NCBI GenBank assembly: GCA_021203905.1
Contig: JAJQAG010000004.1
Location: forward strand, 129,939 to 193,938
DNA length: 64,000 nt
Origin: Coprobacillus sp.
GTDB taxonomy: Bacteria; Bacillota_I; Bacilli_A; RFN20; CAG-826
Direction: 5' to 3'
Shown here: positions 21,149 through 64,000 of the stretch, piece after piece
How positions within the stretch are numbered: the first letter of the stretch is position 1
Layout of the letters: every line of letters starts with the position of its first letter
Program-made: the position numbers and the translations under genes
The notes under the pieces: generated by a model
What the model saw: the letters and a program-made list of their open reading frames with translations, nothing else
Database searches by the model: none
Told to the model about the DNA's origin: nothing

Positions 21149-22063
21149 TTAGTCACTGTTAAAAGGTTCGAGTGAATCGAGAATATTTTTAAAATATTCT
21201 GGGAGAGGACTATTAAAGGTCATCTCTTCTTTTGTAGTGGGATGAACAAGGGTTAACTGGTAGGCATGAAGCATCTGTCCATTGGGGCTGAGAGGTTTAA
21301 CATTCTTTTCACCATATAAAGGATCACTTTCAATGGGATAACCAAGATAGGCAAGGTGCACTCTAATCTGGTGAGTACGGCCGGTCTCTAGATCACATTT
21401 AATAAGGGTGTGACTCTTATATCTTTTAACCACTTCAAAGTAGGTCACCGCGCTTTTACCCCCTCTGACCACCGCTTGTTTCATGGGATACTTTTTATCT
21501 TTATCAATGGGTAAATCAATCTTCGCTTTATTCTCCTTAATGTTTCCTCTCACCAGAGCATAGTAACTTCTTCTCATCGTGTGATCTTCAAGTTGCTGTG
21601 AAAGAAAGGCATGAGCATAGTCATTCTTCGCCACACAGACGAGTCCAGAGGTATCTTTATCGATGCGGTGGACAATCCCAGGACGAAGATCCCCGTTTAA
21701 AGTGGAGAGTTGAGCGAAATGATAGGCAAGAGCATTGGCCATGGTGTGGGTCTCATTACTGATTCCAGGGTGCACTACCATACCCTGAGGTTTATCCACA
21801 ATGATAATGTCATCATCCTCATAGACAATATTAAGGGGAATATCTTCTTTAAGAAGAGTGACTTCTTTCTCGACCTCTTCCACACTGATTTCATCATCAA
21901 GTTTAGTGATATAAGAAGGTTTGACTTTAGTGTCATTAACTAACACTCCCCCTTCTTTAATAAGTGTGGCAATACTACTTCTGGACATATTAGGAAAAGA
22001 TAAGGCCAAGGCCTTATCAATTCTCATATCTTTAAGGTAATCGTCAACTTTTACTCTTTCCAC
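21149..22063 (-). CDS. rluD: 23S rRNA pseudouridine synthase, RluD/RluA family
   Basis: 304 aa with an S4 domain and the catalytic motif HRIDKDTSGL. Confidence 0.92.
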   Translation of the reverse strand: MERVKVDDYLKDMRIDKALALSFPNMSRSSIATLIKEGGVLVNDTKVKPSYITKLDDEISVEEVEKEVTLLKEDIPLNIVYEDDDIIIVDKPQGMVVHPGISNETHTMANALAYHFAQLSTLNGDLRPGIVHRIDKDTSGLVCVAKNDYAHAFLSQQLEDHTMRRSYYALVRGNIKENKAKIDLPIDKDKKYPMKQAVVRGGKSAVTYFEVVKRYKSHTLIKCDLETGRTHQIRVHLAYLGYPIESDPLYGEKNVKPLSPNGQMLHAYQLTLVHPTTKEEMTFNSPLPEYFKNILDSLEPFNSD

Positions 22064-22886
22064 GAGAGGTCTTCTCCTCTATGGTTTCTTTAGTTGGGGT
22101 CTCTACGGGGGCGACTACAACGTCCTCAACCTTTTCTTCTTCTTTTGGATTTGTGGATTCCTCTCCATGTATTAAAGCGTCCATCTGAGCTTGATGAAGC
22201 GCCACTTCGCTCTTAGCTTTCTCTTCTTTCTCTTTCTTACTTTGTTTTCCGTCCCAGACAAAGAGCCAAATGATAAGCATAATCACTCCGACGACTAAGC
22301 AGGCATCCGCCCAGTTAAAAGTGGGGAACTCATAATTTCCAAAGTGGAAAGCAATCCAATCAATCACTCCACGAGTGCTCCCACTGACACCTAAATAGGA
22401 GGAAGTATAGAAGGCTCGATCAATCAGGTTTCCAATACAGCCCGCAAGAATAATCATGCAACAAGCTCTCGCAAATTTGGGAATCTTTTTATATTTGACT
22501 GCAAAAACAGTAATGATTACTACTGCGGCAATAACACTAATACCAACAAAAACAATGATATTTGCAGTGTAATTACCAGTATCTATTCCAAAAGCCATCC
22601 CATCATTGATGACATATTTTACCCCAAGGAAGTTATTAATAAGCCAGATCTCTTCGCCTTCACTGCTATAGTAGTAAGGAACATAGTCCTTAATTAAAGT
22701 TTTGGTGACGATATCGATAATAAACATCAAAACGAAGAGCCAAATAAAAGACTCGAAGATCCACTTCCAAGTAGCATCCCATTTAGGATGTTTCTTGACA
22801 GTAGCGGTTACTTCTTGTTCGGAAACCTGTGCGCTCTCTACGGGTGTGGTTTCAATAGGAGTTTCTTCCTTGACTTTCTTTGGCAT
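22044..22886 (-). CDS. lspA: lipoprotein signal peptidase II with N- and C-terminal extensions
   Basis: LspA core (NxGxAFG-like, GNLIDR) flanked by a K/E-rich tail and an acidic N-terminal extension. I moved the start to the Met with GGAG 9 nt upstream whose ATG overlaps the ileS stop as TAATG; the track start is 22922. Confidence 0.8.
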   Translation of the reverse strand: MPKKVKEETPIETTPVESAQVSEQEVTATVKKHPKWDATWKWIFESFIWLFVLMFIIDIVTKTLIKDYVPYYYSSEGEEIWLINNFLGVKYVINDGMAFGIDTGNYTANIIVFVGISVIAAVVIITVFAVKYKKIPKFARACCMIILAGCIGNLIDRAFYTSSYLGVSGSTRGVIDWIAFHFGNYEFPTFNWADACLVVGVIMLIIWLFVWDGKQSKKEKEEKAKSEVALHQAQMDALIHGEESTNPKEEEKVEDVVVAPVETPTKETIEEKTSRGKSKS

Positions 22887-25621
22887 TACTTTTTCTCCAT
22901 GAGATGATGACATCTTGGGCAAAGATATGAATCTTTCTCTACCTCTATGGCGTCATAATCATAGTTCCAACATCTCTCACAATAGTGTCCACTATGACGA
23001 TGGACATCAATGATTGAGTGGTTATATTCATCTCCTTTAATTTCTTCTTTATAGATATTAAATCCGGAGACGACAAAGAGATTCTTTAAATCTTCTTTGT
23101 TTATTTTATCAAATAAGTGGGAAATATTTACATCTTTTATGAAAATATTTACTTCCGCTTCTTGACTAGAACCAATAGTTCCTTTTTCTCTCTCCACTTC
23201 AAGTGCCTTTAAGACTTCACTTCTTAAAGCCTTAAAGAGTTCGTATTCCAAGAGAAGAGCGTCATCCACTTCCCCCTCTTTTGGAAAGTCGAGCAATTGG
23301 ACATATTCCTCTCTTTTCCCAGGAAGATTCTTATTAAATTCGTCCATGGTGAAAGGAAGAATAGGATTAAGTAATCTTAAGATAGATTCTGAGACGAGAT
23401 ACATCACTGATTGCATCTGGTTCCTTCTCTTTGAATCTTTTTCATCACAATATAAAGTGTCTTTAGCAATATCTAGATAGAAGGAAGATAAATCACTAGA
23501 AAGGAAAGTCGTAATATAACTCATTCCGTTCGCGTAGTTATATTCATCAAAACTCTTTCTCACTTCTCTCTCGACATAGTGTAAACGATTAAGGATATAG
23601 GTATCCACAAGGGTAAAATCACTAGTAGTATTCTTGGGATCAAAGTCCACAAGATTCCACGACATAAACTTTAAAGTATTACGGATTTTACGATAGACTT
23701 CACTTACTTGTTTAATGATATCTTCACTCATTCTCACATCGCTTTGATAGTCGATTGTCCCGCAGTAAAGACGAACGACATCGCTACCATACATATCTAT
23801 CACTTTAAGTGGGTCAGTACCATTACCTTTAGACTTAGACATCTTCTCCCATTTTTCATCCATGATAAACCCATGGGTGACCACGGCATCATAGGGGGCG
23901 TGACCATAGACTGCGGTCGAGATAATAAGGGAAGAATTAAACCATCCACGATACTGATCGCTCCCTTCTAAGTAGAGATTTGCGGGGAAATTTAAACCTT
24001 TATCGACGATATTGTACATAAAGGAAGAACCACTATCAAACCACACATCCATGATATCGACTTCCTTAGTAAATATCCCGTGGGGAGAATGAGAATTTTT
24101 ATAGCCTTTAGGGAGTAAATCTATCGGGTCTTTTTCATACCATACATTTGACCCATTTTCTCTCACTAATTTAATAATATTATCAAAGACTTCTTTCTCA
24201 ATAATGGGAGTCTTATCTTCACAGTAAATAATGGGGATAGGAACACCCCACGCTCTCTGACGAGAGATACACCAATCGCTACGATCTTTAATCATATTGA
24301 CCATTCTTACTTCTCCCCAACTTGGGTACCATTTTACCTTATGAATTTCATTTAGAAGCTTCTCTCTAATGGGTTCAATTGAGCAGAACCATTGATCCGT
24401 CGCTCTAAAGATTAAAGGTTTATTAGTTCGCCAATCATGAGGATAGGAGTGAATAAAGGTTTCATGTTTTAAAAGATGTTGATTCTTCGCGAGAATATCA
24501 AGAACGACATCATTTCCTTTCTCGTAGAATAAACCACTTAACTCTGCTCCGACACTCTCATCAAAATATCCCTTCTCATCCACTGGGCAATAAGGTTCAA
24601 TCCCATATTTTTGACAGACAATAAAATCATCCACACCATGTCCACCAGCGGTATGGACAAATCCCGTTCCAGCGTCATCGGTAACATGAGTTCCAAGAAT
24701 AATGGGAACTACTCTCTCATAGAAAGGATGAGAACATTTAACAAGTTCCACTTCTTTTCCCTTAAATTCCCGAATGAGTTTCACATCTTTAAGATTAAGT
24801 TCATTCACTAATTTATCTTTTAGAGAAGTAAGGAAGGCTAAGTTTCCTCTGTTTGTACAATACACTCCATAAGTAAAATCTGGATGAGCGGATATCGCCA
24901 TATTTGCAGGTAAGGTCCATGGGGTGGTGGTCCAAATAACCACTTGATCACCTTTGTTTAAGATGCCATTTCCTTCAATGACATCAAAGGCCACATAGAT
25001 AGAGTGGCTTTCAACATCTTTATATTCAATCTCTGCTTCTGCTAAAGCGCTTTCACTACTCGGGGACCAATAGACAGGCTTAAGGCCTTTATAGATAAGA
25101 CCATCAAGCGCCATCTTGGCGAAACACTCTAGCTGGCTAGCTTCGTATTCTTTTAAAAGGGTGAGATAAGGTTTCTTAAAATCTCCCACGACTCCTAAAC
25201 GTTGGATTTCTTCTTTTTGTCTTTCCACTTGCTCCAAAGCATAGTCTTTACATTGGTCACGGAACTGGACAATAGGTGTGGTCTTTCGATTGATTCCCAT
25301 CGCTGTGACTTTATTTTCAATAGGGAGACCATGGGTATCCCAACCAAAGACAAAGGGTGTTTGATAACCACACATATTCTTATAACGGATGGTGATATCT
25401 TTAAGCACTCGATTAAGCATATGCCCACAGTGCATATCTCCGTTAGCGTAGGGCGGTCCATCATGGAGAGTGTACTCTGGACACTCTTTTCTTTTCTCCA
25501 TCATTAAAGAGTAGAGATCCTCATCTAACCACTTCTTGATAAGAACTGGTTCTTTAGAAGGGAGGTTTCCTCTCATCTCAAAATTACTTTTATTCATCAG
25601 TAAGGTGTCTTTATAATCCAT
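22886..25621 (-). CDS. ileS: isoleucyl-tRNA synthetase
   Basis: 911 aa with HIGH (PYANGDMHCGH), KMSKS and a C-terminal zinc cluster (CERC..CPRC). Confidence 0.97.
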   Translation of the reverse strand: MDYKDTLLMNKSNFEMRGNLPSKEPVLIKKWLDEDLYSLMMEKRKECPEYTLHDGPPYANGDMHCGHMLNRVLKDITIRYKNMCGYQTPFVFGWDTHGLPIENKVTAMGINRKTTPIVQFRDQCKDYALEQVERQKEEIQRLGVVGDFKKPYLTLLKEYEASQLECFAKMALDGLIYKGLKPVYWSPSSESALAEAEIEYKDVESHSIYVAFDVIEGNGILNKGDQVVIWTTTPWTLPANMAISAHPDFTYGVYCTNRGNLAFLTSLKDKLVNELNLKDVKLIREFKGKEVELVKCSHPFYERVVPIILGTHVTDDAGTGFVHTAGGHGVDDFIVCQKYGIEPYCPVDEKGYFDESVGAELSGLFYEKGNDVVLDILAKNQHLLKHETFIHSYPHDWRTNKPLIFRATDQWFCSIEPIREKLLNEIHKVKWYPSWGEVRMVNMIKDRSDWCISRQRAWGVPIPIIYCEDKTPIIEKEVFDNIIKLVRENGSNVWYEKDPIDLLPKGYKNSHSPHGIFTKEVDIMDVWFDSGSSFMYNIVDKGLNFPANLYLEGSDQYRGWFNSSLIISTAVYGHAPYDAVVTHGFIMDEKWEKMSKSKGNGTDPLKVIDMYGSDVVRLYCGTIDYQSDVRMSEDIIKQVSEVYRKIRNTLKFMSWNLVDFDPKNTTSDFTLVDTYILNRLHYVEREVRKSFDEYNYANGMSYITTFLSSDLSSFYLDIAKDTLYCDEKDSKRRNQMQSVMYLVSESILRLLNPILPFTMDEFNKNLPGKREEYVQLLDFPKEGEVDDALLLEYELFKALRSEVLKALEVEREKGTIGSSQEAEVNIFIKDVNISHLFDKINKEDLKNLFVVSGFNIYKEEIKGDEYNHSIIDVHRHSGHYCERCWNYDYDAIEVEKDSYLCPRCHHLMEKK

Positions 25622-30333: not shown

Positions 30334-30576
30334 TTATTCATCAAATGGGGATTCGTAAGATAAAACATCAATAGAAGAGGTTTCAAGATTCTCCACGACT
30401 TCTGTGTGAACAGTCGAGGTTTTGTTATTTGAAAGATATGTAGGGATAGTGATGATAGCGCCGATTGAAACGAACAATAAAGTAATGAAACTGATGTTTC
30501 TTAAGCGATAGTAGCTTGCGGTCCTGTTGTACTTAATAAGTTTGTCTTTCATCGTGTTTCCTCTACTTTCTTTCAA
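30334..30576 (-). CDS. 80-aa single-TM protein in the FtsL position
   Basis: Basic N-terminus, one TM helix (ISFITLLFVSIGAIITI), short extracytoplasmic tail. Lies between rsmH and ftsA. Confidence 0.45.
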   Translation of the reverse strand: MKESRGNTMKDKLIKYNRTASYYRLRNISFITLLFVSIGAIITIPTYLSNNKTSTVHTEVVENLETSSIDVLSYESPFDE

Positions 30577-31501: not shown

Positions 31502-31931
31502 GATCAATGAGTTCACCTGCGACTTCTTCATAAGAAGAATCAGCTTCTTTTTCGTATTCGAGATACTTCGTACGATCCCAAATTTCAATGTGGTCCACCA
31601 CTCCAAGGATGAAAATATCTTTTCCGATTCCATACCTGGTGATGAGGGCAGTGGGTATCGTCACTCTTCCAAGCTTATCAACCTCTAGTTCATAGGTAGA
31701 AGAGAGTTGGGTTCTTATGTAAGAGCGGCTCTCCTTCTTTTGAAAAGGAAGAGAGTTTATTTCGGTAATTAAGTTATTAAATGCTTCGGCGCTATAAAGA
31801 GAAAGCGCTCCATCATATCCCTTCATGATATAAAGAGGAGAGGAGACCTCTTCTCTCATCCTTTTAGGGATGACAATGCGGTTCTTTTCATCAAGTGAAT
31901 GTTCATAACGACCAAAAAACATATTTACCAC
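31491..31931 (-). CDS. mraZ: transcriptional regulator MraZ
   Basis: 146 aa with two DxxxR-type MraZ repeats (LDEKNRIVIP.., VDKLGRVTIP). Confidence 0.9.
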   Translation of the reverse strand: MVNMFFGRYEHSLDEKNRIVIPKRMREEVSSPLYIMKGYDGALSLYSAEAFNNLITEINSLPFQKKESRSYIRTQLSSTYELEVDKLGRVTIPTALITRYGIGKDIFILGVVDHIEIWDRTKYLEYEKEADSSYEEVAGELIDHGE

Positions 31932-52123: not shown

Positions 52124-52979
52124 AAACCACAATCTCATGGTCACAATCAAGAGCAATAAGATCGACGAGATCTTTTGCTTTGTATCGAGAATCTTTACTC
52201 ACAGTAATATAGTGTTCAAATAATTCATTAAAGGAGAACTTTGAAACATAAATTGTTTCAAGTTGTCTCTCATTTCTAAACTTAATAATCTTTTTGATGA
52301 TTTGATCACGGATGTAATCATTCGCAAATTCTTCTCCAAAATTATCCAAGACGAGAAGATTACAGCGGGAGTATCTTTTAATCATCTCTTCTCTCTCTTC
52401 TTCACTAGCTTTATTCATTTCGTTAATGCGGTAGACACTATCAAGATAGCAGATTTTGTCCACTCCATCTTTAGCGATTTCATTCGTAATCGCGGTGGCT
52501 AGATATGACTTACCAGTATTCTCCGCTCCTTGAATATAAGTAGACTTACGATCAAAGTAGGCTCTTTGAATGGCATCATATCTCTTCTTAGAGGTATCAA
52601 GATTTCCGGTCTTAATATCAAGAATGTCCCACTCTTGGGGATAATCTCTAAGAATGTATCTTGTATTTAGTGTGGTTAACTTAAGGATTTGTTGGCAGGG
52701 AATAAATAGTTCTTCCACCACTCCAGAGTGAACTTTGATATTACTGGTGACAAAGCTCTCTTTCGAGCACTTTTCAATTCCAGGACATTTGGAACAAATT
52801 AAATGATCACAGACATAGTCATAAACACTGTAAATATATTCATCAAGGAGCTTCTCATCAAGATTAGCGGGTAATGGAACTTCTTTTTCGTGCTTTTTAA
52901 TAAAAGCTTTCATCGAAGCAATTTGCTTGGTGTCTCTTTTTATTCCTAATTCATCGATGTTGATATTAATCTTTTCCAT
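52089..52979 (-). CDS. dnaI: primosomal helicase loader DnaI
   Basis: 296 aa with an N-terminal zinc-binding domain and an AAA+ domain (GAENTGKSYLATAI). Confidence 0.8.
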   Translation of the reverse strand: MEKININIDELGIKRDTKQIASMKAFIKKHEKEVPLPANLDEKLLDEYIYSVYDYVCDHLICSKCPGIEKCSKESFVTSNIKVHSGVVEELFIPCQQILKLTTLNTRYILRDYPQEWDILDIKTGNLDTSKKRYDAIQRAYFDRKSTYIQGAENTGKSYLATAITNEIAKDGVDKICYLDSVYRINEMNKASEEEREEMIKRYSRCNLLVLDNFGEEFANDYIRDQIIKKIIKFRNERQLETIYVSKFSFNELFEHYITVSKDSRYKAKDLVDLIALDCDHEIVVSNLAGLYEEKS

Positions 52980-54228
52980 GGCTTATTGAGTTGATGAGAG
53001 CGTCCCAATCCTCCTTACTGATTTCATCGTCTTCTTCCTCACCTTTCTTAGAAGGAGTATGAGGAGAAGGAAGTTTAGTGGTCGTGTTATAAAGATACTC
53101 AAAAGCATCTTTTGCACAAGTGCATTTCTGTCTCTTTAGTGAGGCTCCTACCTTATCAAGGTAGGAAAACTTAAGAATGTTATTACAACGATCAAGGGTA
53201 AATTCAATTAAAGCGTTTAAGACTGAATTCGCTAAACCATACTTCATAGAAATATAGTTAATGGCTTTGATATCTGAGTCTGCGGGGGTGGTATAACCTT
53301 GTAAACGAGAGAGGTAATCAGTGGGTGAAAGGGTTTCACAAGTGTTGATCTTCTCTCCTAGTTCTGTTGTGGAGGAAACCTTATCACCACTTGATTTCTC
53401 CTTGGGAGTGTACATCACTCTATCGTGATGATAGAGAAGGATTTGACTAAGTAAGGTGTCAAAGTCCACTCTCTCACCTTTTGGTTTCTCACTATCGTAG
53501 ATCTTAAGGAAGATCTCCGCTCCTTGTTCTTCTTGAATTCCATTAAGAGTGAAGAGGGAGACAAGGCGATTGAGTTCGTCTCTTGTTAGAGCGTCTTGAT
53601 AATAGGCATAACCCCCATTCTTCTCTTTAACAAACTGGAAGAAGAGATCAACATCAAATTCAGAAACTATGTTTCTGGTACGGCGACTCTTCATCTTTTT
53701 ATTGTGGGAAGTCGTAATATCAAACATCGCACTATCAATATCCGCGATCCCAAAGGCTTCTTGGAAATTAGAGGTGATGTCATCGCCTTCATCATGACCT
53801 TCACTAAGATAATATAAAGACTTAATTCTCTCCGCTTCATCTTTTCCAAGAGAACTTTCAAAAAGAGAACTTCGATAGGGATCCACAAAGAATTGACTAG
53901 GAACGACAGGGGCTCTTAATTCATAGTGGTAGATGCTCGCTCCATTAGTGGTTTCAAGTTTTGTCTTAAGAAGTCCAATCCCTTCTAGTTTTTCTCTTGC
54001 ATCCATAAAGGTTTGAGAATTCATCTTGAGACGATTCCAAAAGTTTTCGTGAGTGGATAAGGAGAAGACTTCTTGATTTCTTGCTTCCGCCATAAAAGAA
54101 AAATATAAAGCCACGGCTTCATATCCAATAATGGGTTGATAGAGATTAACAAGAGTCTCTCGATCGTAGTCCGCAACGAGAGAACCAAATCTCACACTAA
54201 AGTAATCTTGTCCACTTACTATTACCAT
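52966..54228 (-). CDS. dnaB: replication initiation/membrane attachment protein DnaB (B. subtilis type, DnaD-like domains)
   Basis: 420 aa. The N-terminus (LYQPIIGYEAVALY) resembles Bsu DnaB; it sits upstream of dnaI. Confidence 0.75.
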   Translation of the reverse strand: MVIVSGQDYFSVRFGSLVADYDRETLVNLYQPIIGYEAVALYFSFMAEARNQEVFSLSTHENFWNRLKMNSQTFMDAREKLEGIGLLKTKLETTNGASIYHYELRAPVVPSQFFVDPYRSSLFESSLGKDEAERIKSLYYLSEGHDEGDDITSNFQEAFGIADIDSAMFDITTSHNKKMKSRRTRNIVSEFDVDLFFQFVKEKNGGYAYYQDALTRDELNRLVSLFTLNGIQEEQGAEIFLKIYDSEKPKGERVDFDTLLSQILLYHHDRVMYTPKEKSSGDKVSSTTELGEKINTCETLSPTDYLSRLQGYTTPADSDIKAINYISMKYGLANSVLNALIEFTLDRCNNILKFSYLDKVGASLKRQKCTCAKDAFEYLYNTTTKLPSPHTPSKKGEEEDDEISKEDWDALINSISHGKD

Positions 54229-54315
54229 ACCCTCTTATTATCTAGAAAAGAAAAGGACTATTCAACCAATAATGTTTACATTATTTGACGGTGGAAAACT
54301 TCTCCACCATCTAAT

Positions 54316-54373
54316 TGTGAATAAGTGTTCCACCAAATAAGGCTTTTATGAGTCCTCTTCACATTTATCCACA
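54316..54373. promoter_or_regulatory. two DnaA-box matches in the dnaB / pfkA divergent promoter region
   Basis: TGTGAATAA (reverse complement TTATTCACA) at ~54316-54324, and the exact consensus TTATCCACA at ~54365-54373. Confidence 0.4.
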
Positions 54374-54479
54374 TTTCATTTTGTGCATAACTTTTTCTCT
54401 CCCCTTTGAAATTATTTAAATAATTTACAAAAGGAGAGCGGTAATATACACTATTAGATAGTAAAGGACACGTCTAATT

Positions 54480-55439
54480 ATGGGAAAAAGAATCGCTATT
54501 TTAACTAGTGGAGGTGACGCTCCAGGAATGAATGCGGCAATCAGTGCCATTGTGAGAAAAGGCCTTGATTGTGGGCATGAAATGTTTGTGGTCTACGATG
54601 GTTTCTTAGGCCTCGTCAATGGAGATATCAAACAAGTGGATCGAAAGTTTGTCTCCGGAATCATCAATAAAGGTGGCACTGTGATTAGAACCGCCCGTTA
54701 TCCTGAGTTTGCGGATGTCAGAGTCCAAAAGAAAGCCGTTAAAGTACTTGAAGAAAATAAAATAGATGTCCTCATCGGTATTGGAGGAGATGGAACCTAC
54801 CATGGTCTTTTAGGTCTCCACAATTGTGGAGCGAAGGTGATTGGTCTTCCTGGTACTATCGATAATGATATTGCCACTAGTGATGAAACCATAGGCTTCA
54901 ACACCGCTCTCAACACCATCTGTGATGCCCTTGAGAAATTAAAAGATACTTCCTCTTCTCACTGCCGTTGTGCGGTTGTGGAAGTCATGGGTCGTTATTG
55001 TGCAGATCTTTCAATCTACGCTGCGATTGCAGAGAGTGCGGAGTGTTTAGTGTGTTATGACCACATTATGCCGGATGAAGAATTATTTGAAAGAATTAGA
55101 AAAGTTAAAGAGAGAAAGAGTCACTGCTTAGTGGTGGTTAGTGAGAACTTGCTCGATATTAATGAACTCGCGAATAAGATTGAAGAAGCGACAGGATTTG
55201 AGGCAAAACCAGAAGTTTTAGGTCGTCTCCAAAGAGGTGGAGATCCATGTCCTCAAGATCGAATCTTAGCCGCGAGACTTGGTTGCTATTCCATTGATTT
55301 AATCAACCAAGGTGTCAGTGGAGTGGTTGTCGGCACCAAGGGAACTGAAGTTGCCGCAACAGGAATTAAAGAGGGCTTCGAGCTTCCTCGTACTGATCGT
55401 ACCTCCTATTTTGAAATTGCCGATGTGCTTGGAAAATAA
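54480..55439 (+). CDS. pfkA: ATP-dependent 6-phosphofructokinase
   Basis: 319 aa (ILTSGGDAPGMNA, GGDGT). Confidence 0.95.
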   Translation: MGKRIAILTSGGDAPGMNAAISAIVRKGLDCGHEMFVVYDGFLGLVNGDIKQVDRKFVSGIINKGGTVIRTARYPEFADVRVQKKAVKVLEENKIDVLIGIGGDGTYHGLLGLHNCGAKVIGLPGTIDNDIATSDETIGFNTALNTICDALEKLKDTSSSHCRCAVVEVMGRYCADLSIYAAIAESAECLVCYDHIMPDEELFERIRKVKERKSHCLVVVSENLLDINELANKIEEATGFEAKPEVLGRLQRGGDPCPQDRILAARLGCYSIDLINQGVSGVVVGTKGTEVAATGIKEGFELPRTDRTSYFEIADVLGK

Positions 55440-56291
55440 ATGAAACAAGTAATCTCACTCGATATTGGTGGAACAAATTTACGGGCCGCTTTAGTGGATA
55501 GTGATTACCATATTCTTAATGTGGTAAGAATGCCAAATCGTTGCTATGGAGATAAGAAGAAATTCTATAGTAATGTTATTGAAATCATCCAACAACTAGA
55601 GCCAGATTTTGATGATGTCATCAATATCTCTTTAGGAGTTCCAGGAAGAGTAAGAAACGATGGTTTTATTGAAGGACTCGCTAATGTGGGAATTAGTGAT
55701 ATCAACCTGGTGAGAGTCTTAAATAGAAAGTTTCATAAAGATGTCTACATCCGTAATGATGCGGAGATGGGTCTTCTTGCGGAAGCCGTTTTAGGCGAAG
55801 GAAAAGGCTATGATGGAGTGTATTTCATCACCATTTCCACAGGAATTGGAGGCGCTTTTGCCTTTAAGGGGCACCTTAAAAACTATGGTAAAGAGATTGG
55901 TCATATCCCAGTCTTAATTGATGATAACTACTACGAGTTGGAAAAGATGTGCTCAGGAGAGGGGATTAAGAGACTTTGTAAACTATATGATTTAGATGTG
56001 AGCTCAGCGTCAGAATTCTTCTCGATGGTGAGAAGTAGTGAGAAGAAGTCTCTTGTGGTCTTTGAAAAGTGGCTTGAGATCTTCTCACGTCTCCTTCGTT
56101 ATGTTAAAAGAGTCTATAATCCAGATATCTTTACCTTTACTGGAGGAGTCTTTAAAAACAAGGATTTAATCTTTTCTAGATTAAAAGAAATGAATCCTGA
56201 CTTAAATATGGTAGAATGTTATTTTAGAGAGGACGCGGGACTTATCGGTTCTGCGGTCTACGGATTTAGTCAAATGGAGGAAGAAGAATGA
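55440..56291 (+). CDS. ROK-family sugar kinase (glucokinase-like)
   Basis: 283 aa with an N-terminal DIGGTNLR. Abuts pfkA and overlaps thrS. Confidence 0.7.
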   Translation: MKQVISLDIGGTNLRAALVDSDYHILNVVRMPNRCYGDKKKFYSNVIEIIQQLEPDFDDVINISLGVPGRVRNDGFIEGLANVGISDINLVRVLNRKFHKDVYIRNDAEMGLLAEAVLGEGKGYDGVYFITISTGIGGAFAFKGHLKNYGKEIGHIPVLIDDNYYELEKMCSGEGIKRLCKLYDLDVSSASEFFSMVRSSEKKSLVVFEKWLEIFSRLLRYVKRVYNPDIFTFTGGVFKNKDLIFSRLKEMNPDLNMVECYFREDAGLIGSAVYGFSQMEEEE

Positions 56292-58057
56292 AAATAGTCT
56301 TACACGATGGAAGTATCAAAGAAGTTGATCAAAATTCCACAGAAGCTTTTAACACTCTAAATCACTCCACCGCTCACCTCCTTGCCGAGGCTGTTTTAGC
56401 CCTATATCCTGATGCAAAACTCTCGATAGGCCCTAGTATTGAAGAGGGCTTTTATTATGATATCGATTTTGGAGACACTCCCTTTAGCGAAGATGATTTA
56501 GCCCCAATTGAAAAGAAAATGAAAGAAATATCCGCGAGAGGATATGATATTAAATACATGACTATGACCAAAGCGGCGGCTTTGGAATACTTTAAAGACA
56601 ATCCTTATAAGGTGGAACTAATCACTAATCTCAGTGATGGGGATATTACCGCTTTTAGACAAAATGATTTTATAGATCTTTGTCGAGGACCACATGTCTT
56701 AAATAGTAACTTGATTAAGCACTTTAAGCTCACCTCTGTCGCCGGAGCATACTGGAGAGGTGACAGCCACAATAAACAACTTACAAGAATCTATGGCACC
56801 AGTCATTTTAGTGAAGAGTCTCTTCAAAACTACCTCACCCTTGTAGAGGAAAGAAGGAAGAGAGATCATCGAGTTCTTGGCAAACAACTCGATTTATTTA
56901 TGCTCTCGGAATACGGTCCTGGATTCCCCTTCTGGCTTCCTAACGGAATGGTAATTCGTACAGAAATCGAGAATTTAATCAAGGAAATGCTAAGAAAATA
57001 CGATTATCAGTTAATTTCCACACCAATTGTATTAAGTAAAGAATTATGGGAGACATCAGGTCATTGGGACCACTACCAAAAGAATATGTATCTCACTCAT
57101 GTCGATGAGAGAGAGTTTGCCATTAAACCAATGAACTGTCCTGGAGCCATCCTCGTCTATAACTCCACTCTCCACTCCTATCGAGATTTACCAGTGCGAT
57201 TAGCGGAGTTAGGACTAGATCATCGTCATGAAGCGAGTGGTGCTCTCAATGGTCTTTTTAGAGCGAGAGCCTTTACCCAAGATGATGCTCATATCTTTTG
57301 CACCAGTGCCCAGCTAAGGAGTGAAATCACCCGATGTGTGAAGTTCTTTGATGAAGTCTATTCTCTCTTCCATCTTGATTACACTGTGGAATTATCCACC
57401 CGACCAGAGAAAGATTATATCGGTTCCGTGAGTGTCTGGAATAAGAGTGAAAAAATTCTTGAAGACGCCATAAAGAAAACAGGAAAACCTTATGAAATCA
57501 ATCCTGGAGATGGAGCGTTCTATGGACCAAAACTCGACTTTAAAGTGAGAGATAGCATGAATCGAGTGTGGCAATGTGGCACTATTCAACTCGATATGAA
57601 TCTCCCTCATCGTTTTGGATGTAGTTATATTGACGCCAGCGGGAATAAGGTTGAACCCATTATGATTCATAGAGCGTGCCTTGGTTCTATCGAGAGATTT
57701 ATTGGGGTGCTCATCGAGCACTTCGCTGGAGCCTTCCCCCTTTGGCTCGCACCAATCCAAATAGCAATCCTTCCCGTTAATAACGAGTTCCATTTAAGAT
57801 ACGCAAAATCACTAAAGACAAGTTTAGAGAAACTTGGTTTTAGAGTGAGTCTTGATGAGAGCGAAGAGAAGCTTGGTTATCGTATGAGAAATGCTCAGAT
57901 GAAGAAAATTCCCTACACTATCGTTATCGGAGATAACGAGGTCACAAATAAAACCTTAACTTATCGCACATATAAGGATAAAGAACAGGTCACTGTTCCC
58001 GTTGGTGATTTTAAGAAGAAGATTAAAATCGAAAGAGACCAAAGAAAACTCAATTAA
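56288..58057 (+). CDS. thrS: threonyl-tRNA synthetase (short form, reduced TGS domain)
   Basis: 589 aa with an HSTAHLL editing-domain motif and a class II core plus anticodon-binding domain. Confidence 0.93.
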   Translation: MKIVLHDGSIKEVDQNSTEAFNTLNHSTAHLLAEAVLALYPDAKLSIGPSIEEGFYYDIDFGDTPFSEDDLAPIEKKMKEISARGYDIKYMTMTKAAALEYFKDNPYKVELITNLSDGDITAFRQNDFIDLCRGPHVLNSNLIKHFKLTSVAGAYWRGDSHNKQLTRIYGTSHFSEESLQNYLTLVEERRKRDHRVLGKQLDLFMLSEYGPGFPFWLPNGMVIRTEIENLIKEMLRKYDYQLISTPIVLSKELWETSGHWDHYQKNMYLTHVDEREFAIKPMNCPGAILVYNSTLHSYRDLPVRLAELGLDHRHEASGALNGLFRARAFTQDDAHIFCTSAQLRSEITRCVKFFDEVYSLFHLDYTVELSTRPEKDYIGSVSVWNKSEKILEDAIKKTGKPYEINPGDGAFYGPKLDFKVRDSMNRVWQCGTIQLDMNLPHRFGCSYIDASGNKVEPIMIHRACLGSIERFIGVLIEHFAGAFPLWLAPIQIAILPVNNEFHLRYAKSLKTSLEKLGFRVSLDESEEKLGYRMRNAQMKKIPYTIVIGDNEVTNKTLTYRTYKDKEQVTVPVGDFKKKIKIERDQRKLN

Positions 58058-58083
58058 CATCACTTTCAAAGTGGGAGGAAAGA

Positions 58084-60000
58084 ATGCTTCAACAGATTAC
58101 TCTCTCTTGTCTATTACTTATCGGAAACATGGCGGGTCTCACTGCCTCTTTTTTTACAAATGATGACGAAATGTATAGAGAAGGGTGTTGCCTTATTGAT
58201 GCACCGTATGCGAGTTGCCTTGATAATGAAAGAGAGATTACGGGGGTTGATGAAACATACATTCTCACTGTAAGTGAAGAGGTTAACTCTCTTACCTATC
58301 GAGGAGAGGTGACACTCCTCGAGTATACGATTAAAGAGGGAACAGAAGTTACATGCCTCTTGACTGATTTTATTGATTTAGGAAATATCATCTTTGATTT
58401 TTATCATGATGAAGAGTACATCGCTTCCTACGCTTTGTACTTTGCTAGAGATGACGAAGGGGCCTTTTATTCAAGCGGGAGAAGCCTTGACTGTGCAAAA
58501 TCTCTCGCGGGTCAAGAACTCGGTTATGTTTTTCTTGCGAGTGAAGAAGAGCCAGAAGAAGAGTTAGAAAGCGAGACTTCAAGTGGTCACCGAACCCATG
58601 GAAAGATCTATGGCTACTTTAAGTGGATGGACGATGATGAACAGATTCATCCACTTGTGGGAGCAAAAGTAAAATTAAAAGTAAGAGGAAGCTTCTATAG
58701 TGAAACAACCTATACAGATGATAATGGTTACTACTGTTTTGAGTATAGTAATGTTTTCTACTATGGCTCAGGAATGGCAACAGTTACCTTAAGTTTAGAG
58801 AATGATCTTATTAAAGTTAAAAACTCAAATGTCTATGCCTATAAATACAAACTACAAAAAAGAGATGTTACCTATGAACTATCACAAACCTTCTCCCCTG
58901 AACAAGATGGTGATTTTGGAAAGGCGGCATCAATCTTTCAAGGATTCTATTGCTTTTCCAAAGTAGCGAAAGAATTTGACTACAAGAATAAATTATCTAA
59001 GATTTCCATTATTTATCCTTCTAGTCGGGTGATGTTAATGTCGTTCATGTGGGGAGAAAGAAAAATCGAGGTGGCCAACTATATAGAGAAAAGTGGCTAC
59101 CCAAAAGCCTATGCCTCGTGGGATTCATTTGGGCATGAATATGCTCATTTTGTATGCGCTCGCTACGGATTCTTTTCTTGGTCATCTTCTAATATAGCCC
59201 ACAACAGCATCATAAATCGTATTGAATTGATTATCTTAAATGATGGTGACTCCGCGAGAAAAGCAAAAAGAGTCTCCACTCGTTTGGCGTTTAATGAAGC
59301 CTGGGCCGCCACTTGGTCGGTATTAATTCAACAGTACTTTGATGATGAATGGAAAAGTGTCGCCACAGTGGGAGATAGTTGCTATACCAACTCTTCGGGA
59401 GTAGATGATGATTTTGATGACTATGACACTGACCACCCCGAAAGATATGGGGATAGTGAGGAGTTAGCTCTCTCTAAGATTCTCTATAAACTCGCCACTT
59501 TTGAAACCGATGAATATGATAAATTTTCCCTGGGATTTGAAGAGTTTTGGAGAATTTCTTACGAAAATAAGACAAAGTCTCTCTATGATTTTATCGATGC
59601 GATGTATGAGCAAGGATATAGTAAGAGTGATCTTGGACTTTTACTTGGTCAATTTAATGTCACCCCAAATAAAATCCAAATCACTAATTACTATTTAGAT
59701 ACCTGCCCTACATTAACTTGGTCAGCTTATATGGGAACAGCATACTTTAACTATAATCGTTTTGATATCTATTTCCTTGATGACAATGGAAACGAGATCC
59801 TAAAAAAGAAAGTCAAATCACATGGAGAAGTTACTTGTTCCTACACCTTAAAAGAAGAGGATTGGCAATTAATTCTCGATTCATGTCAAGAGTGCTTCTC
59901 TATCAATATGGTGGTGTGGCAAACAACTTATCGAGATACTGGGGGTTATTATACAGAAACCTTTAGTTATGATCTACCCACTCAATACTATTATCAATAA
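58084..60000 (+). CDS. secreted HExxH-motif protein with a CarboxypepD_reg-like beta-sandwich (putative zinc metallopeptidase), paralog 1
   Basis: 638 aa with a signal-peptide-like N-terminus, VGAKVKLKVRGSFYSETTYTDDNGYYCFEY and HEYAH. Confidence 0.5.
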   Translation: MLQQITLSCLLLIGNMAGLTASFFTNDDEMYREGCCLIDAPYASCLDNEREITGVDETYILTVSEEVNSLTYRGEVTLLEYTIKEGTEVTCLLTDFIDLGNIIFDFYHDEEYIASYALYFARDDEGAFYSSGRSLDCAKSLAGQELGYVFLASEEEPEEELESETSSGHRTHGKIYGYFKWMDDDEQIHPLVGAKVKLKVRGSFYSETTYTDDNGYYCFEYSNVFYYGSGMATVTLSLENDLIKVKNSNVYAYKYKLQKRDVTYELSQTFSPEQDGDFGKAASIFQGFYCFSKVAKEFDYKNKLSKISIIYPSSRVMLMSFMWGERKIEVANYIEKSGYPKAYASWDSFGHEYAHFVCARYGFFSWSSSNIAHNSIINRIELIILNDGDSARKAKRVSTRLAFNEAWAATWSVLIQQYFDDEWKSVATVGDSCYTNSSGVDDDFDDYDTDHPERYGDSEELALSKILYKLATFETDEYDKFSLGFEEFWRISYENKTKSLYDFIDAMYEQGYSKSDLGLLLGQFNVTPNKIQITNYYLDTCPTLTWSAYMGTAYFNYNRFDIYFLDDNGNEILKKKVKSHGEVTCSYTLKEEDWQLILDSCQECFSINMVVWQTTYRDTGGYYTETFSYDLPTQYYYQ

Positions 60001-60070
60001 CCAATATTGCGAACAATATTGTTGAATATAATCTCTATAATTTTAGATAATATAAAGAGGAGTTATACGA

Positions 60071-62014
60071 TTGTTTCGTCAGTTATTGCTTTCTTGTCTT
60101 TTAGTGGTTAGTTCTCTCTCAGGGATGGTGACAACCTCTATTTTTACTAACTCCTACGAATACGATAGTGGTGATTACATTTGTGATGACTCTCCTTATG
60201 TGAGTTGCCAAGATAATGAGAGAGAAGTAACGAATAAAAAAGAATCCTATGTTTTTGTGGCGAGTCAAGAAATTGACAGTGTCAAATGGGAGGGAGAGGT
60301 CACCCTTAGCCACTACGAAATAAGAAATGAAAATGAAATGACTGCCATTGTCACTAATTATATCGATCAGGGAGAAATTACGTTCCACTTCTACTATCAA
60401 AAGGAATACGTCTGCTCCTATGCTTTATATTTTGCTTGTAGTGAAGATGGAACATTCTATTCCAGCGGAAGGACACTCGATTGCGCAAAAATGCTTGCGG
60501 ATCAACAAGTTAACTACACCTTTTTAAGTAATGATGAAGAAGAGGAAGATGAACTTGTCACTATAGAAGAGAGCACTTCCTTTGGTTTTGGAACCCATGG
60601 TAAGGTCTATGGGTGGTTCCACTGGTGTGGCGATGATGGTGAATCCTATCCCCTTGTAGGAGCGAGGGTCACCTTAAGAATTGGGGGGAGTTGGTATAGT
60701 CAAGTCACCCATACAGACGAAGATGGATATTATTGCTTTGAATATCAAAAGGTTTGGTATTTAGGAAGCGGTCGTCCAACAATCACTCTCCGCCTTCAAA
60801 ACGAGAAAATAAAAGTGAAATCTTCAGGAGTCTATGCCTATAAGTTTAAGATGGCGGAAAAAGACACGACGATGGAGTGTTCGCGAACCTTCACCATTGA
60901 AGAAGATGGAGATTTTGCCAAAGCCGCAGCTCTTTTTCAAGCGGGTTATCTCTATTCTAATTTTGCCTTTGAACATGACGAAGGTGGCATTCTCAAATCA
61001 TGTAAAATAAGATATCCTTCGAATTATGACACTATCTGTTATACCGAAAACATTCGAAGAATAAATATCCCTAATACCATTAATGAAAACTCACCCTCTT
61101 GTTACATGGCGTGGGATACAATTGGGCATGAGTATTGTCATCATGTCCAGGCTTGTCACAAAATAGATCATGTTAGTAAGCACCACAATTCTGCTTATAA
61201 CGACATCGACTATCTCATTGATCGATCTTATTCGACCATGAATAAAGTCAAACATGAGGGAACGACTCTCTCTCTCGATGAGGGATTTGCCACTTATTGG
61301 GGAGTGGTAGCCCAACAGTCCTTTGACCCTAGATGGTGGTATGTCCCCACAGTGGGAGATGCATCCTACACCTCAAGTGGGGGCGCCAATTATAGTTTAG
61401 ATGTCTATTACGATTCCCAAAGCCGTAACCTTGGAGATTGCCAAGAGAGAGCAATTGCTAGAATTCTATATAAGCTCACTTCCGATAAGATTGATACCTA
61501 TGACCGCTTTGCCCTTGGTTTTGATACCATCTGGGAACTCTATGAAAAATATTTACCCACCACCATGAGTGAGTTTATTAACATTCTCTATGAGCAAGGT
61601 TATGACAAATATGATCTTGGACTCTTGCTTGGTCAGTATGGTGTCACCCCGAGTAGCATGAACATCACAAATAATAGCTATGATACATGCCCTACATATA
61701 CGTGGTCGACCTCTTCTGGGAGTAAATACTTCCAATATAACGAATTTGACTTTGTCATCCTCTCTAATGAGGGAGAAGAGTTAATAAACCACCATTTCGT
61801 CTCCGATAATGATGAAGACACCTATTCTTACACTCTCAGTGAAGAAGAGTGGCAACTCATTCAGAATTCCACTTCCCAGTTGTACTATGCCTATCTGGTG
61901 ATGTGGCAAACTGATGATTTTGTCACCGGAGGTTACTATTCAAACTTATATACCTTCTATCTTCCAAGACGGATTGTGATTATTCCGAGACCCGGGGATC
62001 TGATTATCACTTAA
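60071..62014 (+). CDS. secreted HExxH-motif protein, paralog 2 (TTG start)
   Basis: 647 aa, collinear with paralog 1 (YALYFA..FYSSGR.LDCAK, TDEDGYYCFEY, HEYCH, LGLLLGQ). RBS GAGGAG. Confidence 0.5.
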   Translation: MFRQLLLSCLLVVSSLSGMVTTSIFTNSYEYDSGDYICDDSPYVSCQDNEREVTNKKESYVFVASQEIDSVKWEGEVTLSHYEIRNENEMTAIVTNYIDQGEITFHFYYQKEYVCSYALYFACSEDGTFYSSGRTLDCAKMLADQQVNYTFLSNDEEEEDELVTIEESTSFGFGTHGKVYGWFHWCGDDGESYPLVGARVTLRIGGSWYSQVTHTDEDGYYCFEYQKVWYLGSGRPTITLRLQNEKIKVKSSGVYAYKFKMAEKDTTMECSRTFTIEEDGDFAKAAALFQAGYLYSNFAFEHDEGGILKSCKIRYPSNYDTICYTENIRRINIPNTINENSPSCYMAWDTIGHEYCHHVQACHKIDHVSKHHNSAYNDIDYLIDRSYSTMNKVKHEGTTLSLDEGFATYWGVVAQQSFDPRWWYVPTVGDASYTSSGGANYSLDVYYDSQSRNLGDCQERAIARILYKLTSDKIDTYDRFALGFDTIWELYEKYLPTTMSEFINILYEQGYDKYDLGLLLGQYGVTPSSMNITNNSYDTCPTYTWSTSSGSKYFQYNEFDFVILSNEGEELINHHFVSDNDEDTYSYTLSEEEWQLIQNSTSQLYYAYLVMWQTDDFVTGGYYSNLYTFYLPRRIVIIPRPGDLIIT

Positions 62015-62059
62015 AAGGGGGCACTCAACATCTGAAATTAAATAGACGAATGATAGGTG

Positions 62060-62232
62060 TTGACACATTATTGTTAATAATGTAAACTAACAATCGCAAT
62101 AGATAGAAAGTAGAGGCACCCGCTTCTCACCAGATCGATAAATCGGTTGGTCAATCGCTATTATGAAATACTTACTTATATTCATAAGATGATTACGGGT
62201 GCGGCTACGCATCCGTTTTATTTAGGAAGGAG
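62060..62232 (+). promoter_or_regulatory. infC-rpmI-rplT promoter and L20-type autoregulatory leader with a terminator/attenuator hairpin
   Basis: TTGACA-17-TAAACT; a 7-bp hairpin TTATGAA..TTCATAA; then GGTGCG-GCTA-CGCATC followed by GTTTTATTT just 5' of the infC RBS. Confidence 0.5.
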
Positions 62233-62237
62233 ATGAT

Positions 62238-62804
62238 ATTATCCCAGGCAATTACAATGGTGGTTCAAATAAGAATAGCAACCCACAGAAACCTAACAGA
62301 GATTTAGTAAATGAAGCTATCCACTTCTCCAAAGTCTTGGTCATTGGACCAGAAGGAGAAAGTTTAGGAGAGATGAGCGCTCAAGAGGCCCTAGATAAAG
62401 CCAGTGAGTATAACCTTGACTTATACTGTGTCGCCGCTAACGCTAATCCCCCAGTGTGTAAAATCTTAAATTACAATAAGTTCCGCTACGATCAGAAACG
62501 TAAGGAAAGAGACCAGAGAAAGAACCAGCACATTGTGGAGATAAAAGAGATTCAACTCACCCCTCAAATTGGAATCCATGATCTAGAAATCAAAGCCAAG
62601 AGAGCGAATGAATTCCTTCTTGATGGAAACCGCGTCAAGATTAGAGTGATGTTTAGGGGAAGACAACTATCCCATGTTGATGTGGGTCAAGAAACCTTGG
62701 ATAAATTTCTTGCCTTAGTAAGTGAAAATGGAGAGTTAGAAAAGGAGCCAGTTCTTGATGGAAGATGGCTCAATGGAGTAATTATTCCAAAAAAGAAGAA
62801 GTAA
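62238..62804 (+). CDS. infC: translation initiation factor IF-3 (non-AUG ATT/ATC start)
   Basis: The track ORF begins at an internal TTG. An in-frame extension back to an ATT ~7 nt after the AGGAAGGAG RBS gives the canonical RDLVNEAI..VLVIGPEGE N-terminus. Confidence 0.85.
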   Translation: MIPGNYNGGSNKNSNPQKPNRDLVNEAIHFSKVLVIGPEGESLGEMSAQEALDKASEYNLDLYCVAANANPPVCKILNYNKFRYDQKRKERDQRKNQHIVEIKEIQLTPQIGIHDLEIKAKRANEFLLDGNRVKIRVMFRGRQLSHVDVGQETLDKFLALVSENGELEKEPVLDGRWLNGVIIPKKKK

Positions 62805-62818
62805 GGAGAATATGAAAG

Positions 62819-63013
62819 ATGCCAAAAATGAAAAGTAAAAAGGCTCTTACAAAAAGAGTCAAAGTGTCCGGCACTGGGAAAATCATGAGACATCATGCTT
62901 ATACCAGCCATAATGCCCACTCTAAAACAACCAAACAAAAGAAGCAGCTCTCTCAAGCCGCAGTGATGGATAAGACCGATGTCAAGAGAGAGAAAGAGCT
63001 CATTCAGAAATAG
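62819..63013 (+). CDS. rpmI: 50S ribosomal protein L35
   Basis: 64 aa (MPKMKSKKALTKRVK..). Confidence 0.93.
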   Translation: MPKMKSKKALTKRVKVSGTGKIMRHHAYTSHNAHSKTTKQKKQLSQAAVMDKTDVKREKELIQK

Positions 63014-63025
63014 GAGGCATAAACC

Positions 63026-63370
63026 ATGAGAGTAAAAGGTGGAACTGTTTCCCGTAACAGAAGAAAAAAGACATTAAAGAGAGCCAGTGGATACTACGGA
63101 AGTAAGCACTTGCTCTATAAGACCGCTCATGAGCAAGTGATGCATTCACTTCACTATGCCTATCGTGATCGTCGTCTTATTAAGAGAGACTTTAGAAAAC
63201 TCTGGATTAAGAGAATTAATGCCGCGTGCCGTTTAAACGGAATCTCCTATTCCGTGTTCATGCACGGACTTAAAACTAACGGCATTAACATCAATAGAAA
63301 GATGCTCTCAGAAATGGCAATTAATGATCCCGCCGGATTTAAAGAGCTCGTTCAGATTGCTAAAAAATAA
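63026..63370 (+). CDS. rplT: 50S ribosomal protein L20
   Basis: 114 aa ([15 protein letters not shown]..). Confidence 0.95.
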
Positions 63371-63384
63371 CTTCTCTAAAGTTA

Positions 63385-63420
63385 AAGAAAAAAAGACACA
63401 GCGATGTGTCTTTTTTTCTT
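63385..63420. terminator. bidirectional rho-independent terminator
   Basis: A-run, then AGACACA-gcga-TGTGTCT, then a T-run; sits between rplT and the convergent thiI. Confidence 0.75.
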
Positions 63421-64000
63421 AATTAATGATTTCTACCTCAGCTTTTTCAATGGCGGTTTTTATCATCGCCTCATAATCAATTTTAGCTTCAAATTTTCTT
63501 ATTTCATCGAGTTTTGGAGCAGTTTTTGGATTTTTTGGAGCGAATATTGTGCAACAGTCTTCAAAGGGGCGAATGGAGATATCATAGGTTTTGATGTGCT
63601 GTGCTACTTTGATAATCTCAAGTTTATCCATGACCGCAAGTGGACGAATAATAGGGAAGTTGGTTACCTCATTTATCGCTTGTAGAGAATCGAGGGTTTG
63701 AGAGGCCACTTGACCCACACTCTCTCCGGTGGCAATGACTTTACAATGTCTCTCTCTAGCGACTTTCTCTGCAATTCGATACATCATCCTTCTCATGATG
63801 GTGATGCAATAGCTCTCATCAATGTTTTTATAAATCGCTTCTTGAATCTCCGTAAAGGGGATAATTGTGAGACGAATCTGACTTTGGTATTTCGTTAGAG
63901 TTTTAAGTAGGTCTCTAATCTTATAGATAACTCCGACATTAGTGTAGGGAGGAGAAGCAAAATGAATACACTCAAGAGTGATGCCTCTTCTCATAAGTAA
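63419..64000 (-). CDS. thiI: tRNA 4-thiouridine synthase ThiI, C-terminal part (truncated at the window edge)
   Basis: PP-loop/ThiI C-terminal region (HFASPPYT.., VIATGESVGQVASQTL). The ORF runs off the end of the window. Confidence 0.75.
   Translation of the reverse strand, partial: LLMRRGITLECIHFASPPYTNVGVIYKIRDLLKTLTKYQSQIRLTIIPFTEIQEAIYKNIDESYCITIMRRMMYRIAEKVARERHCKVIATGESVGQVASQTLDSLQAINEVTNFPIIRPLAVMDKLEIIKVAQHIKTYDISIRPFEDCCTIFAPKNPKTAPKLDEIRKFEAKIDYEAMIKTAIEKAEVEIIN

Follow-up and report, generated by a model that had tools for sequence, protein, structure and literature searches.

What are the two long open reading frames (ORFs) that separate thrS from infC in an uncultured gut bacillus, and how did they come to lie there? 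The question is raised by a 64,000-nucleotide (nt) stretch of contig JAJQAG010000004.1 (assembly GCA_021203905.1, positions 129,939 to 193,938), which belongs to a metagenome-assembled genome (MAG) labelled Coprobacillus sp. by NCBI and is referred to here, at its full length, as the window. Coordinates are positions in this stretch, position 1 being its first letter. ORF1 (58084..60000, + strand; 638 amino acids, aa) begins with ATG, and ORF2 (60071..62014, + strand; 647 aa) begins with TTG 70 nt past ORF1. A BLASTP alignment of the two proteins showed 45% identity over 620 aa (E = 0). We propose, with a probability of roughly 0.7, that both are exported, multidomain zinc metallopeptidases belonging to an unannotated family of gluzincins (clan MA).

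Predicted active site and family

Each protein carries an HExxH motif, which reads HEYAH in ORF1 (H351 E352 Y353 A354 H355; 59134..59148, + strand) and HEYCH in ORF2 (H353 E354 Y355 C356 H357; 61127..61141, + strand) and is predicted to supply two zinc ligands and the catalytic base; we refer to the two proteins as the HEYAHF and HEYCHH paralogue types. The motifs occupy aligned positions, and only ~0.01 HExxH would be expected by chance in a protein of such composition. Among 161 retrieved homologues, 158 contained the motif and the remaining three were fragments. Conservation was then scored over 100 diverse sequences that are ~20-57% identical to the ORF1 catalytic domain. Five residues (D347, H351, E352, H355, and E405, in ORF1 numbering) were invariant in 100/100 and are kept in both ORF1 and ORF2, and nine more (Y353, H356, H373, K395, Q416, Y434, G456, E460, and D479) were conserved in at least 90%. 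E405 (59296..59298, + strand), the predicted third zinc ligand, lies within NEAWA, and the corresponding E404 of ORF2 (61280..61282, + strand) lies within DEGFATYW; the third-ligand motif therefore reads ExxA in both proteins (E405-A-W-A and E404-G-F-A). The second histidine is separated from this glutamate by 49 residues in ORF1, 46 in ORF2, and 37-71 across the family. Both proteins also match the zinc-protease signature pattern. The metzincin signature HExxHxxGxxH/D was absent, since the corresponding segments read HEYAHFVCARY in ORF1, HEYCHHVQACH in ORF2, and HEYGHHVQxxxG in the family consensus, with the glycine and the third histidine out of register.

Family members were counted as cluster representatives at the 50%-identity level. 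A word-indexed search returned only 15 relatives; an exhaustive profile search returned 2139 representatives at E<=1e-3, of which 757 also passed E<=1e-30. With each species represented by a single genome, a scan located 73 loci, nearly all in gut or rumen MAGs of Bacilli, Erysipelotrichaceae, 'Mollicutes', Anaeroplasma, Acholeplasmatales, Clostridia, and Christensenellaceae, with a few in Planctomycetota or Acidobacteriota. The sole name given to members by the sources, including in a cluster look-up, is 'hypothetical protein'. This is also how the public record lists both proteins of the window, exactly as predicted here (LUC31_03175 and LUC31_03180), ORF2 having 647 aa and an identical start. 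When ORF1 and ORF2 were compared with Pfam and NCBIfam, no catalytic family was found and no peptidase model matched at E<=1. A Pfam search with 55 diverse members recovered accessory domains only, with no peptidase at E<=0.01 except one marginal Reprolysin_5 match. Profile searches of PDB sequences, using full-length and domain alignments, yielded no peptidase, and the motif HEYGH, looked for in the literature, brought up irrelevant matches only.

A first-pass annotation of this DNA, made from the sequence alone, had described two collinear ORFs between thrS and infC at exactly the coordinates given above, each with HExxH in the same position, and had called them putative metallopeptidases of no named family. 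These proposals have held up well. The HExxH motifs align and recur in the homologues, HExxH and E405 are invariant, the catalytic domain is predicted to be thermolysin-like (see below), and no match covering the core was found in Pfam, NCBIfam, or PDB sequences; none of the outcomes set in advance as damaging (no third ligand or peptidase-like fold, or loss of HExxH in orthologues) was encountered.

The proposed zincin chemistry is already well understood; what is undescribed is the family, along with its architecture and the lipoprotein partner discussed below. Represented by more than 2,000 clusters, the family is nameless in Pfam, NCBIfam, and the sources searched, and is concentrated in uncultured, host-associated, nutrient-dependent lineages (RF39/RFN20-like Bacilli, Anaeroplasma, Acholeplasmatales, and Christensenellales). 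If active, its members would constitute a widespread class of secreted gut and rumen proteases that is now annotated only as 'hypothetical protein'.

Domain architecture and predicted fold

The predicted structure of ORF1 was obtained with AlphaFold, both at full length (pLDDT, the per-residue confidence score, 84.8; pTM, the predicted template-modelling score, 0.83) and, for residues 261-529, as a second model derived from 100 sequences (pLDDT 92.3, pTM 0.91). All segments lie on the + strand, and ORF2 has the same domain order. A hydrophobic N-terminal helix (residues 1-25, 58084..58158; helix 2-25, low pLDDT) is followed by an N-terminal β domain (residues 40-148, 58201..58527) with strands spanning 43-131 at pLDDT >90, and by a low-confidence, acidic linker (residues 149-168, 58528..58587), in which residues 150-168 have pLDDT ~56-60 and are disordered. 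Next come a transthyretin/CarboxypepD_reg-like β-sandwich (residues 169-260, 58588..58863), the catalytic domain, predicted to adopt a thermolysin-like, two-lobe zincin fold (residues 261-529, 58864..59670), and a C-terminal FN3-like β-sandwich (residues 530-638, 59671..59997) that resembles the FN3 domains 8fn9_F and 6x39 (target template-modelling score, TM, 0.56-0.58). In the full-length model itself, the folded parts of these last three domains span residues 169-256 (β-sandwich), 263-525 (α/β), and 531-630 (β-sandwich).

The transthyretin-like domain of ORF1 contains TYTDDNGYYCFEY (58708..58746, + strand), and ORF2 contains THTDEDGYYCFEY (60707..60745, + strand), the string common to both being T[YH]TD[DE][ND]GYYCFEY. 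The first-pass annotation was right that this motif occurs in both ORFs, but its version, T[DY]D[DE][ND]GYYCFEY, was one residue off; the ILYKL and DLGLLLGQ strings that it listed are indeed present in both. It had further described the motif as Cna-B/CarboxypepD_reg-like, and fold-level and sub-threshold matches tend to support this. Pfam scores were below threshold in both ORFs (E 0.057 and 0.12; 13-14 bits vs. a cut-off of 32.3), with CarboxypepD_reg at 0.057 and SdrD_B at 0.11 in ORF1. Within the set of 55 members, Pfam matches to TTR-52 (best 1.2e-5), SdrD_B, CarboxypepD_reg, and SpaA were found, and Foldseek matched the β-sandwiches of the full-length model to UafA/SdrD-type, PA1324, and FN3 domains. 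Longer members of the family add LRR_5, Flg_new, PPC, or transthyretin-like domains according to Pfam, the first three of these being typical of surface or secreted proteins.

In the model of the catalytic domain, a backing helix (272-297) is followed by strands 307-313, 320-322, and 327-331, by an active-site helix (346-361) that holds HExxH, and by a glutamate helix (391-418) that holds E405. This order of elements is the canonical gluzincin layout (PMC6414381). When the catalytic-domain model was searched with Foldseek, the top two matches were LasB/pseudolysin (PDB 9fqd and 8cr7; E 5e-3, probability 1.0), in an alignment that takes in all of mature LasB (277 columns, TM 0.52/0.48). Of the much weaker matches (E ~0.5-10), the recognizable ones were mostly gluzincins (selecase, jannalysin, abylysin, EryP, anthrax lethal factor, and PepN), but they also included non-peptidase chains, among them a mycobacterial transcriptional regulator. 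The full-length model matched M1 aminopeptidases first (E 1e-5, probability 0.96-0.98), with a TM of only ~0.2 over the whole chain because the protein has many domains. As an independent check, an hhalign comparison with a thermolysin profile built from retrieved M4 sequences (P = 9e-4, probability 22.6%) aligned WDVIGHEYGHHVQ with IDVVAHELTHAVT, placing HEYxH on thermolysin HELTH (H142, E143, and H146), and aligned LAWxExW with GAINEAI, placing E405 on thermolysin E166; the upstream strands aligned as well. As judged from sequence profiles and predicted models, the similarity to thermolysin is real yet distant, lying at the level of fold and clan and not of family membership.

Assignment on such grounds has a precedent in the elastase FP0506 of Flavobacterium psychrophilum, which was recognized as a gluzincin by its HExxH, a downstream ExxA glutamate, and the order of its fold, and which belongs to no MEROPS family (PMC6414381). 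ORF1 and ORF2 are likewise placed among the gluzincins by motif and predicted fold, with an ExxA glutamate. FP0506, however, is a 296-aa lipoprotein that occurs only in Flavobacteriaceae and has the M48-like structure 3C37 as a relative (PMC6414381), and no sequence relationship between it and the family of ORF1 and ORF2 was seen.

The N-termini of both ORFs are hydrophobic, as had been remarked in the first-pass annotation, and a strongly hydrophobic N-terminal segment was present in 115 of the 144 full-length members. In ORF1 this predicted helix would serve either as a Sec signal peptide or as a signal anchor. Both ORFs have a cysteine at residue 9 (within LSC in ORF1, where it is the only early cysteine), and we considered whether they might be lipoproteins; we rejected this because residue 9 is too near the N-terminus for a lipobox, which is expected at ~15-35. 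A lipobox-like site was found in only 8 of the 144 members. Since LspA is encoded in the window (22044..22922), lipoprotein processing exists in the organism.

These observations suggest how the proteins might work. Gene structure, paralogy, the insertion described below, the size of the family and its pattern of conservation, and the predicted fold with its closest solved structures are shown by the analysis; zinc binding, proteolysis, export, and a substrate are inferred. The hydrophobic N-terminus would carry the protein across the membrane. Zn2+ would be bound by H351 and H355 of HEYxH and by E405 of the next long helix, and E352, as the general base, would activate the water bound to zinc. 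D347, Y353, H373, Y434, E460, and D479 probably position the ligands and stabilize the transition state, and the N-terminal β, transthyretin-like, and FN3-like domains probably act in substrate binding or as a prodomain.

Several points weigh against identifying ORF1 and ORF2 as exported gluzincins. The identification is built entirely from sequence and predicted models, and a sequence match to any peptidase family is missing from Pfam, NCBIfam, and PDB sequences. At the domain level, the best Foldseek match reached an E of only 5e-3 with TM ~0.5, and the hhalign probability was only 22.6%. ORF1-type copies depart from the consensus at three near-invariant positions (Y321F, H356F, and T409A). 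Finally, the N-terminus of ORF1 contains no lysine or arginine, and its helix may be a signal anchor instead of a cleavable Sec signal.

Putative partner lipoproteins and alternative explanations

One alternative, which we regard as unlikely, is that the family consists of envelope proteases, directed at the cell itself or at competitors, that are controlled by a cognate lipoprotein in the manner of the potempin/KLIKK systems; the two copies in the window would then be orphan effectors, the partner having been lost or having its gene at another site. This possibility stems from the surroundings of the gene in other lineages. We examined 75 family loci (L004-L078) and found, in 35 of them, a gene for a small lipoprotein of ~200-250 aa with a canonical lipobox within 200 nt upstream or downstream (e.g., L008:5246-5851, L021:7457-8068, and L006:657-1277). 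The lipoprotein gene is often duplicated, and 46 of 47 such genes lie on the strand of the peptidase-like gene. The lipoproteins fall into three BLAST clusters that are related to one another (hhalign probability 97%, 96%, and 87%). Potempins are lipoprotein inhibitors that are encoded beside their target peptidases, the KLIKK enzymes of Tannerella forsythia (PMC9890683), and the arrangement at about half of the family's loci elsewhere, with a secreted peptidase gene beside a small lipoprotein gene, is similar, although only by analogy. The lipoprotein could be a cognate inhibitor or an anchor, and if the enzymes are active it would represent a candidate new family of protease partners, possibly inhibitors.

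The family's lipoproteins are unrelated to potempins in sequence, however, and matched no Pfam family and no known inhibitor family. Moreover, when the six reading frames of the 64-kb window and of the sister-species locus L001 were searched with a hidden Markov model (HMM), no homologue of them appeared. We also considered whether the N-terminal β domain of ORF1 and ORF2 might be the partner lipoprotein in fused form, and rejected this because the hhalign probability was <1% and BLASTP found nothing. Control by a lipoprotein concerns regulation and target, and is thus compatible with the gluzincin assignment and not exclusive of it. A more ambitious combination of the two can be imagined, which we offer as speculation with a low chance of being correct in full. 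The new MA-clan family would be one half of a two-gene module, with the membrane-anchored lipoprotein as inhibitor, anchor, or chaperone, typical of uncultured, reduced-genome gut Bacilli and Clostridia; in the present lineage, which probably has no peptidoglycan, the lipoprotein would have been lost, and the peptidase gene, having landed between thrS and infC and expanded into a tandem array with rapidly diversifying catalytic domains, would encode a host- or competitor-facing effector under diversifying pressure.

We think it improbable that ORF1 and ORF2 are very divergent members of an existing family (M4 thermolysin, M1, M9, M36, or M60-like), which would make a new family unnecessary. 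In favor of such membership are the structural comparisons given above. Among solved structures, the M4 enzyme LasB comes closest to the ORF1 catalytic domain, the thermolysin profile aligns over the β-strands, HExxH, and the glutamate helix, HEYxH and E405 fall on the thermolysin ligands, and LasB-type enzymes are secreted, as ORF1 and ORF2 are predicted to be. The full-length model matches M1 enzymes instead. In IRAP, ERAP1, and PepN, an N-terminal β domain precedes a thermolysin-like catalytic domain, as in ORF1, and DEGFATYW of ORF2 resembles NEGFA(T/S), the third-ligand motif of M1. Membership in either family is difficult to reconcile with the remaining features. Apart from the single marginal Reprolysin_5 match among 55 members, no search of Pfam, NCBIfam, or PDB-sequence profiles returned a peptidase at the thresholds given above. 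The family's His-Glu spacing of 37-71 compares with ~18-20 in M1 and M4. With regard to M4, the gap in thermolysin is 19, and the longer insert of the family is predicted to hold the near-invariant H373 and an extra helix; no Peptidase_M4 or M4_C match was found; NEAWAAT or DEGFATY stands in place of NExxSD; and Pfam detected no FTP/PepSY propeptide, the accessory domains being instead the N-terminal β, transthyretin-like, and FN3-like ones. With regard to M1, ORF1 and ORF2 lack the GxMEN motif, a Pfam Peptidase_M1 match, and the C-terminal ERAP1-like helical domain, and their spacing is 46-49 instead of 18.

Equally improbable is a pseudo-peptidase, in which the zincin-like domain would be a non-catalytic binding module and the three β-sandwich domains would mediate surface adhesion: adhesins of Gram-positive bacteria commonly contain β-sandwiches of the kinds that make up three of the four folded domains (UafA, SdrD B-type), ORF1 has lost the near-invariant H356, T409, and Y321, and the paralogues differ most in the catalytic domain, but the three ligands and the catalytic glutamate are invariant across the 100 sequences and kept in both ORFs, a retention so strict that it would not be expected of an inactive scaffold.

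Insertion, divergence, and genomic setting

ORF1 starts 26 nt past the stop codon of thrS, with no terminator in between, so the array may be co-transcribed with thrS. Shine-Dalgarno-like sequences precede both genes (GGGAGGA upstream of ORF1 and AGAGGAG upstream of ORF2), and the span 58084-62014 otherwise holds short shadow ORFs only. ORF1 and ORF2 are genuine, expressed-looking tandem paralogues.

The history of the site was apparent from four relatives in which the L20 leader and infC come immediately after thrS within the same flanking synteny. Their threonyl-tRNA synthetases (ThrRS) are 87% (L082), 81% (L079), 81% (L083), and 68% (L081) identical to that of the window. Apart from the window, an array at thrS-infC was carried only by L001-L003, three assemblies of one sister species (ThrRS 95%). 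Because relatives with the same flanks have thrS and then infC directly, the array is a lineage-specific insertion, as the first-pass annotation had supposed from the proximity of these genes in Bacillus. The array was inserted downstream of the thrS stop codon and upstream of a promoter-like TTGACA at 62060, which precedes the L20 leader of infC. We considered delivery by a mobile element and rejected it, as there were no flanking repeats and no tRNA genes and the GC content was close to that of the flanks; the only repeats found derive from the paralogy (spacing ~1993-1999 nt). No further paralogues were found elsewhere in the 64-kb window. The sister species has three copies in the same site (640, 637, and 737 aa), the middle one of which has no counterpart in the window. 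This middle copy (L001:11929-13855, L003:3400-5326, and L002:3440-5353) is intact (637 aa) in one of the three assemblies and split into 225 + 405 aa in the other two, which reflects either a nascent pseudogene or an assembly error.

Rates of change were estimated by comparing the window with L001. Synonymous divergence (dS) was saturated in this comparison (~1 or more), so the ratios of nonsynonymous to synonymous divergence (dN/dS) are rough. Flanking genes had dN of 0.01-0.09, dN/dS of 0.02-0.09, and amino-acid identities of 84-99%. ORF1 and ORF2, compared with their nearest L001 counterparts, had dN of 0.27-0.31, dN/dS of ~0.14-0.17, and identities of 60-65%, and their amino-acid sequences have changed ~9x faster than that of thrS. 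Both are thus under purifying selection and are therefore real genes. The catalytic domain was the least conserved part, with 41-57% identity vs. 52-85% for the β domains, both between paralogues and between orthologues. That the catalytic domain diverges fastest while all catalytic residues are kept suggests diversification of specificity. At this locus, two or three paralogues that diverge fast and have kept their catalytic residues can be compared in a natural setting. In the scenario we favor, the array would have entered between the stop codon of thrS and the promoter and L20 leader of infC in one uncultured, reduced-genome gut bacillus lineage, and would then have duplicated and diverged much faster than its neighbors, most of all in the catalytic domain. 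The pair had been called deeply diverged at first; the BLASTP alignment leaves no doubt about paralogy, but 45% identity amounts to moderate divergence.

The genes around the array occur in the order polA, fpg-coaE, dnaI-like, dnaB-like, pfkA, ROK kinase, thrS, array, infC, rpmI, rplT, and thiI. The upstream flank, thrS (56288..58057, + strand), encodes a threonine-tRNA ligase of 589 aa; Pfam identified tRNA_SAD, tRNA-synt_2b, and HGTP_anticodon in its 95%-identical orthologue, and no N-terminal TGS domain in ThrRS. The start of thrS and the stop of the ROK kinase gene share 4 nt, and a search of 52000-64000 revealed no T-box leader; for these two reasons thrS seems to be transcribed together with pfkA and the ROK kinase gene. 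On its downstream side, the insertion is bounded by a probable L20 leader RNA (62102..62230, + strand), with which the infC-rpmI-rplT unit starts. It matched RF00558 over model positions 1-127 of 127 with 58.6 bits, just under the gathering score of 58.7 (E 9e-10), lies upstream of infC-rpmI-rplT as expected, and is kept in sequence in L001, L079, and L081. The Rfam scan of the span gave nothing else of note. The downstream flank, infC (62238..62804, + strand), encodes initiation factor 3 (IF3). Its frame is open from ATT at 62238, right behind a GGAGA ribosome-binding site, and the start in the ORF list is TTG at 62337; since 62238-62337 encodes conserved IF3 N-terminal sequence, the start is probably the classic AUU at 62238.

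Two clusters in the window have a Mollicutes-type gene order. The division cluster (27702-31931) consists of mraZ-rsmH-ftsA-ftsZ only, with no mur, pbp, or ftsW genes, and radC is followed directly by rplU-prp-rpmA-obg (1798-4993), with no mreBCD or minCD. Peptidoglycan is predicted to be absent in several uncultured orders of Bacilli related to Erysipelotrichales (PMC10868615), and the local gene order, judged from 64 kb, is consistent with a lineage that lacks it. The first-pass description of a wall-less, reduced genome is to that extent compatible with the local gene order, but a 64-kb window is insufficient as proof, and the NCBI label is Coprobacillus sp.

Two further features of the window were observed. 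Between ileS and ftsZ (25621-27700) lie small ORFs on the + strand, several of which have no Pfam match and one of which (25991-26392) matches DUF4417. In addition, a 463-aa ORF at 50732-52123 appears to be a fusion of Fpg/MutM (Fapy_DNA_glyco, H2TH) with dephospho-CoA kinase (CoaE), and the same fusion was present in all relatives examined (L001, L079, L080, L081, and L083).

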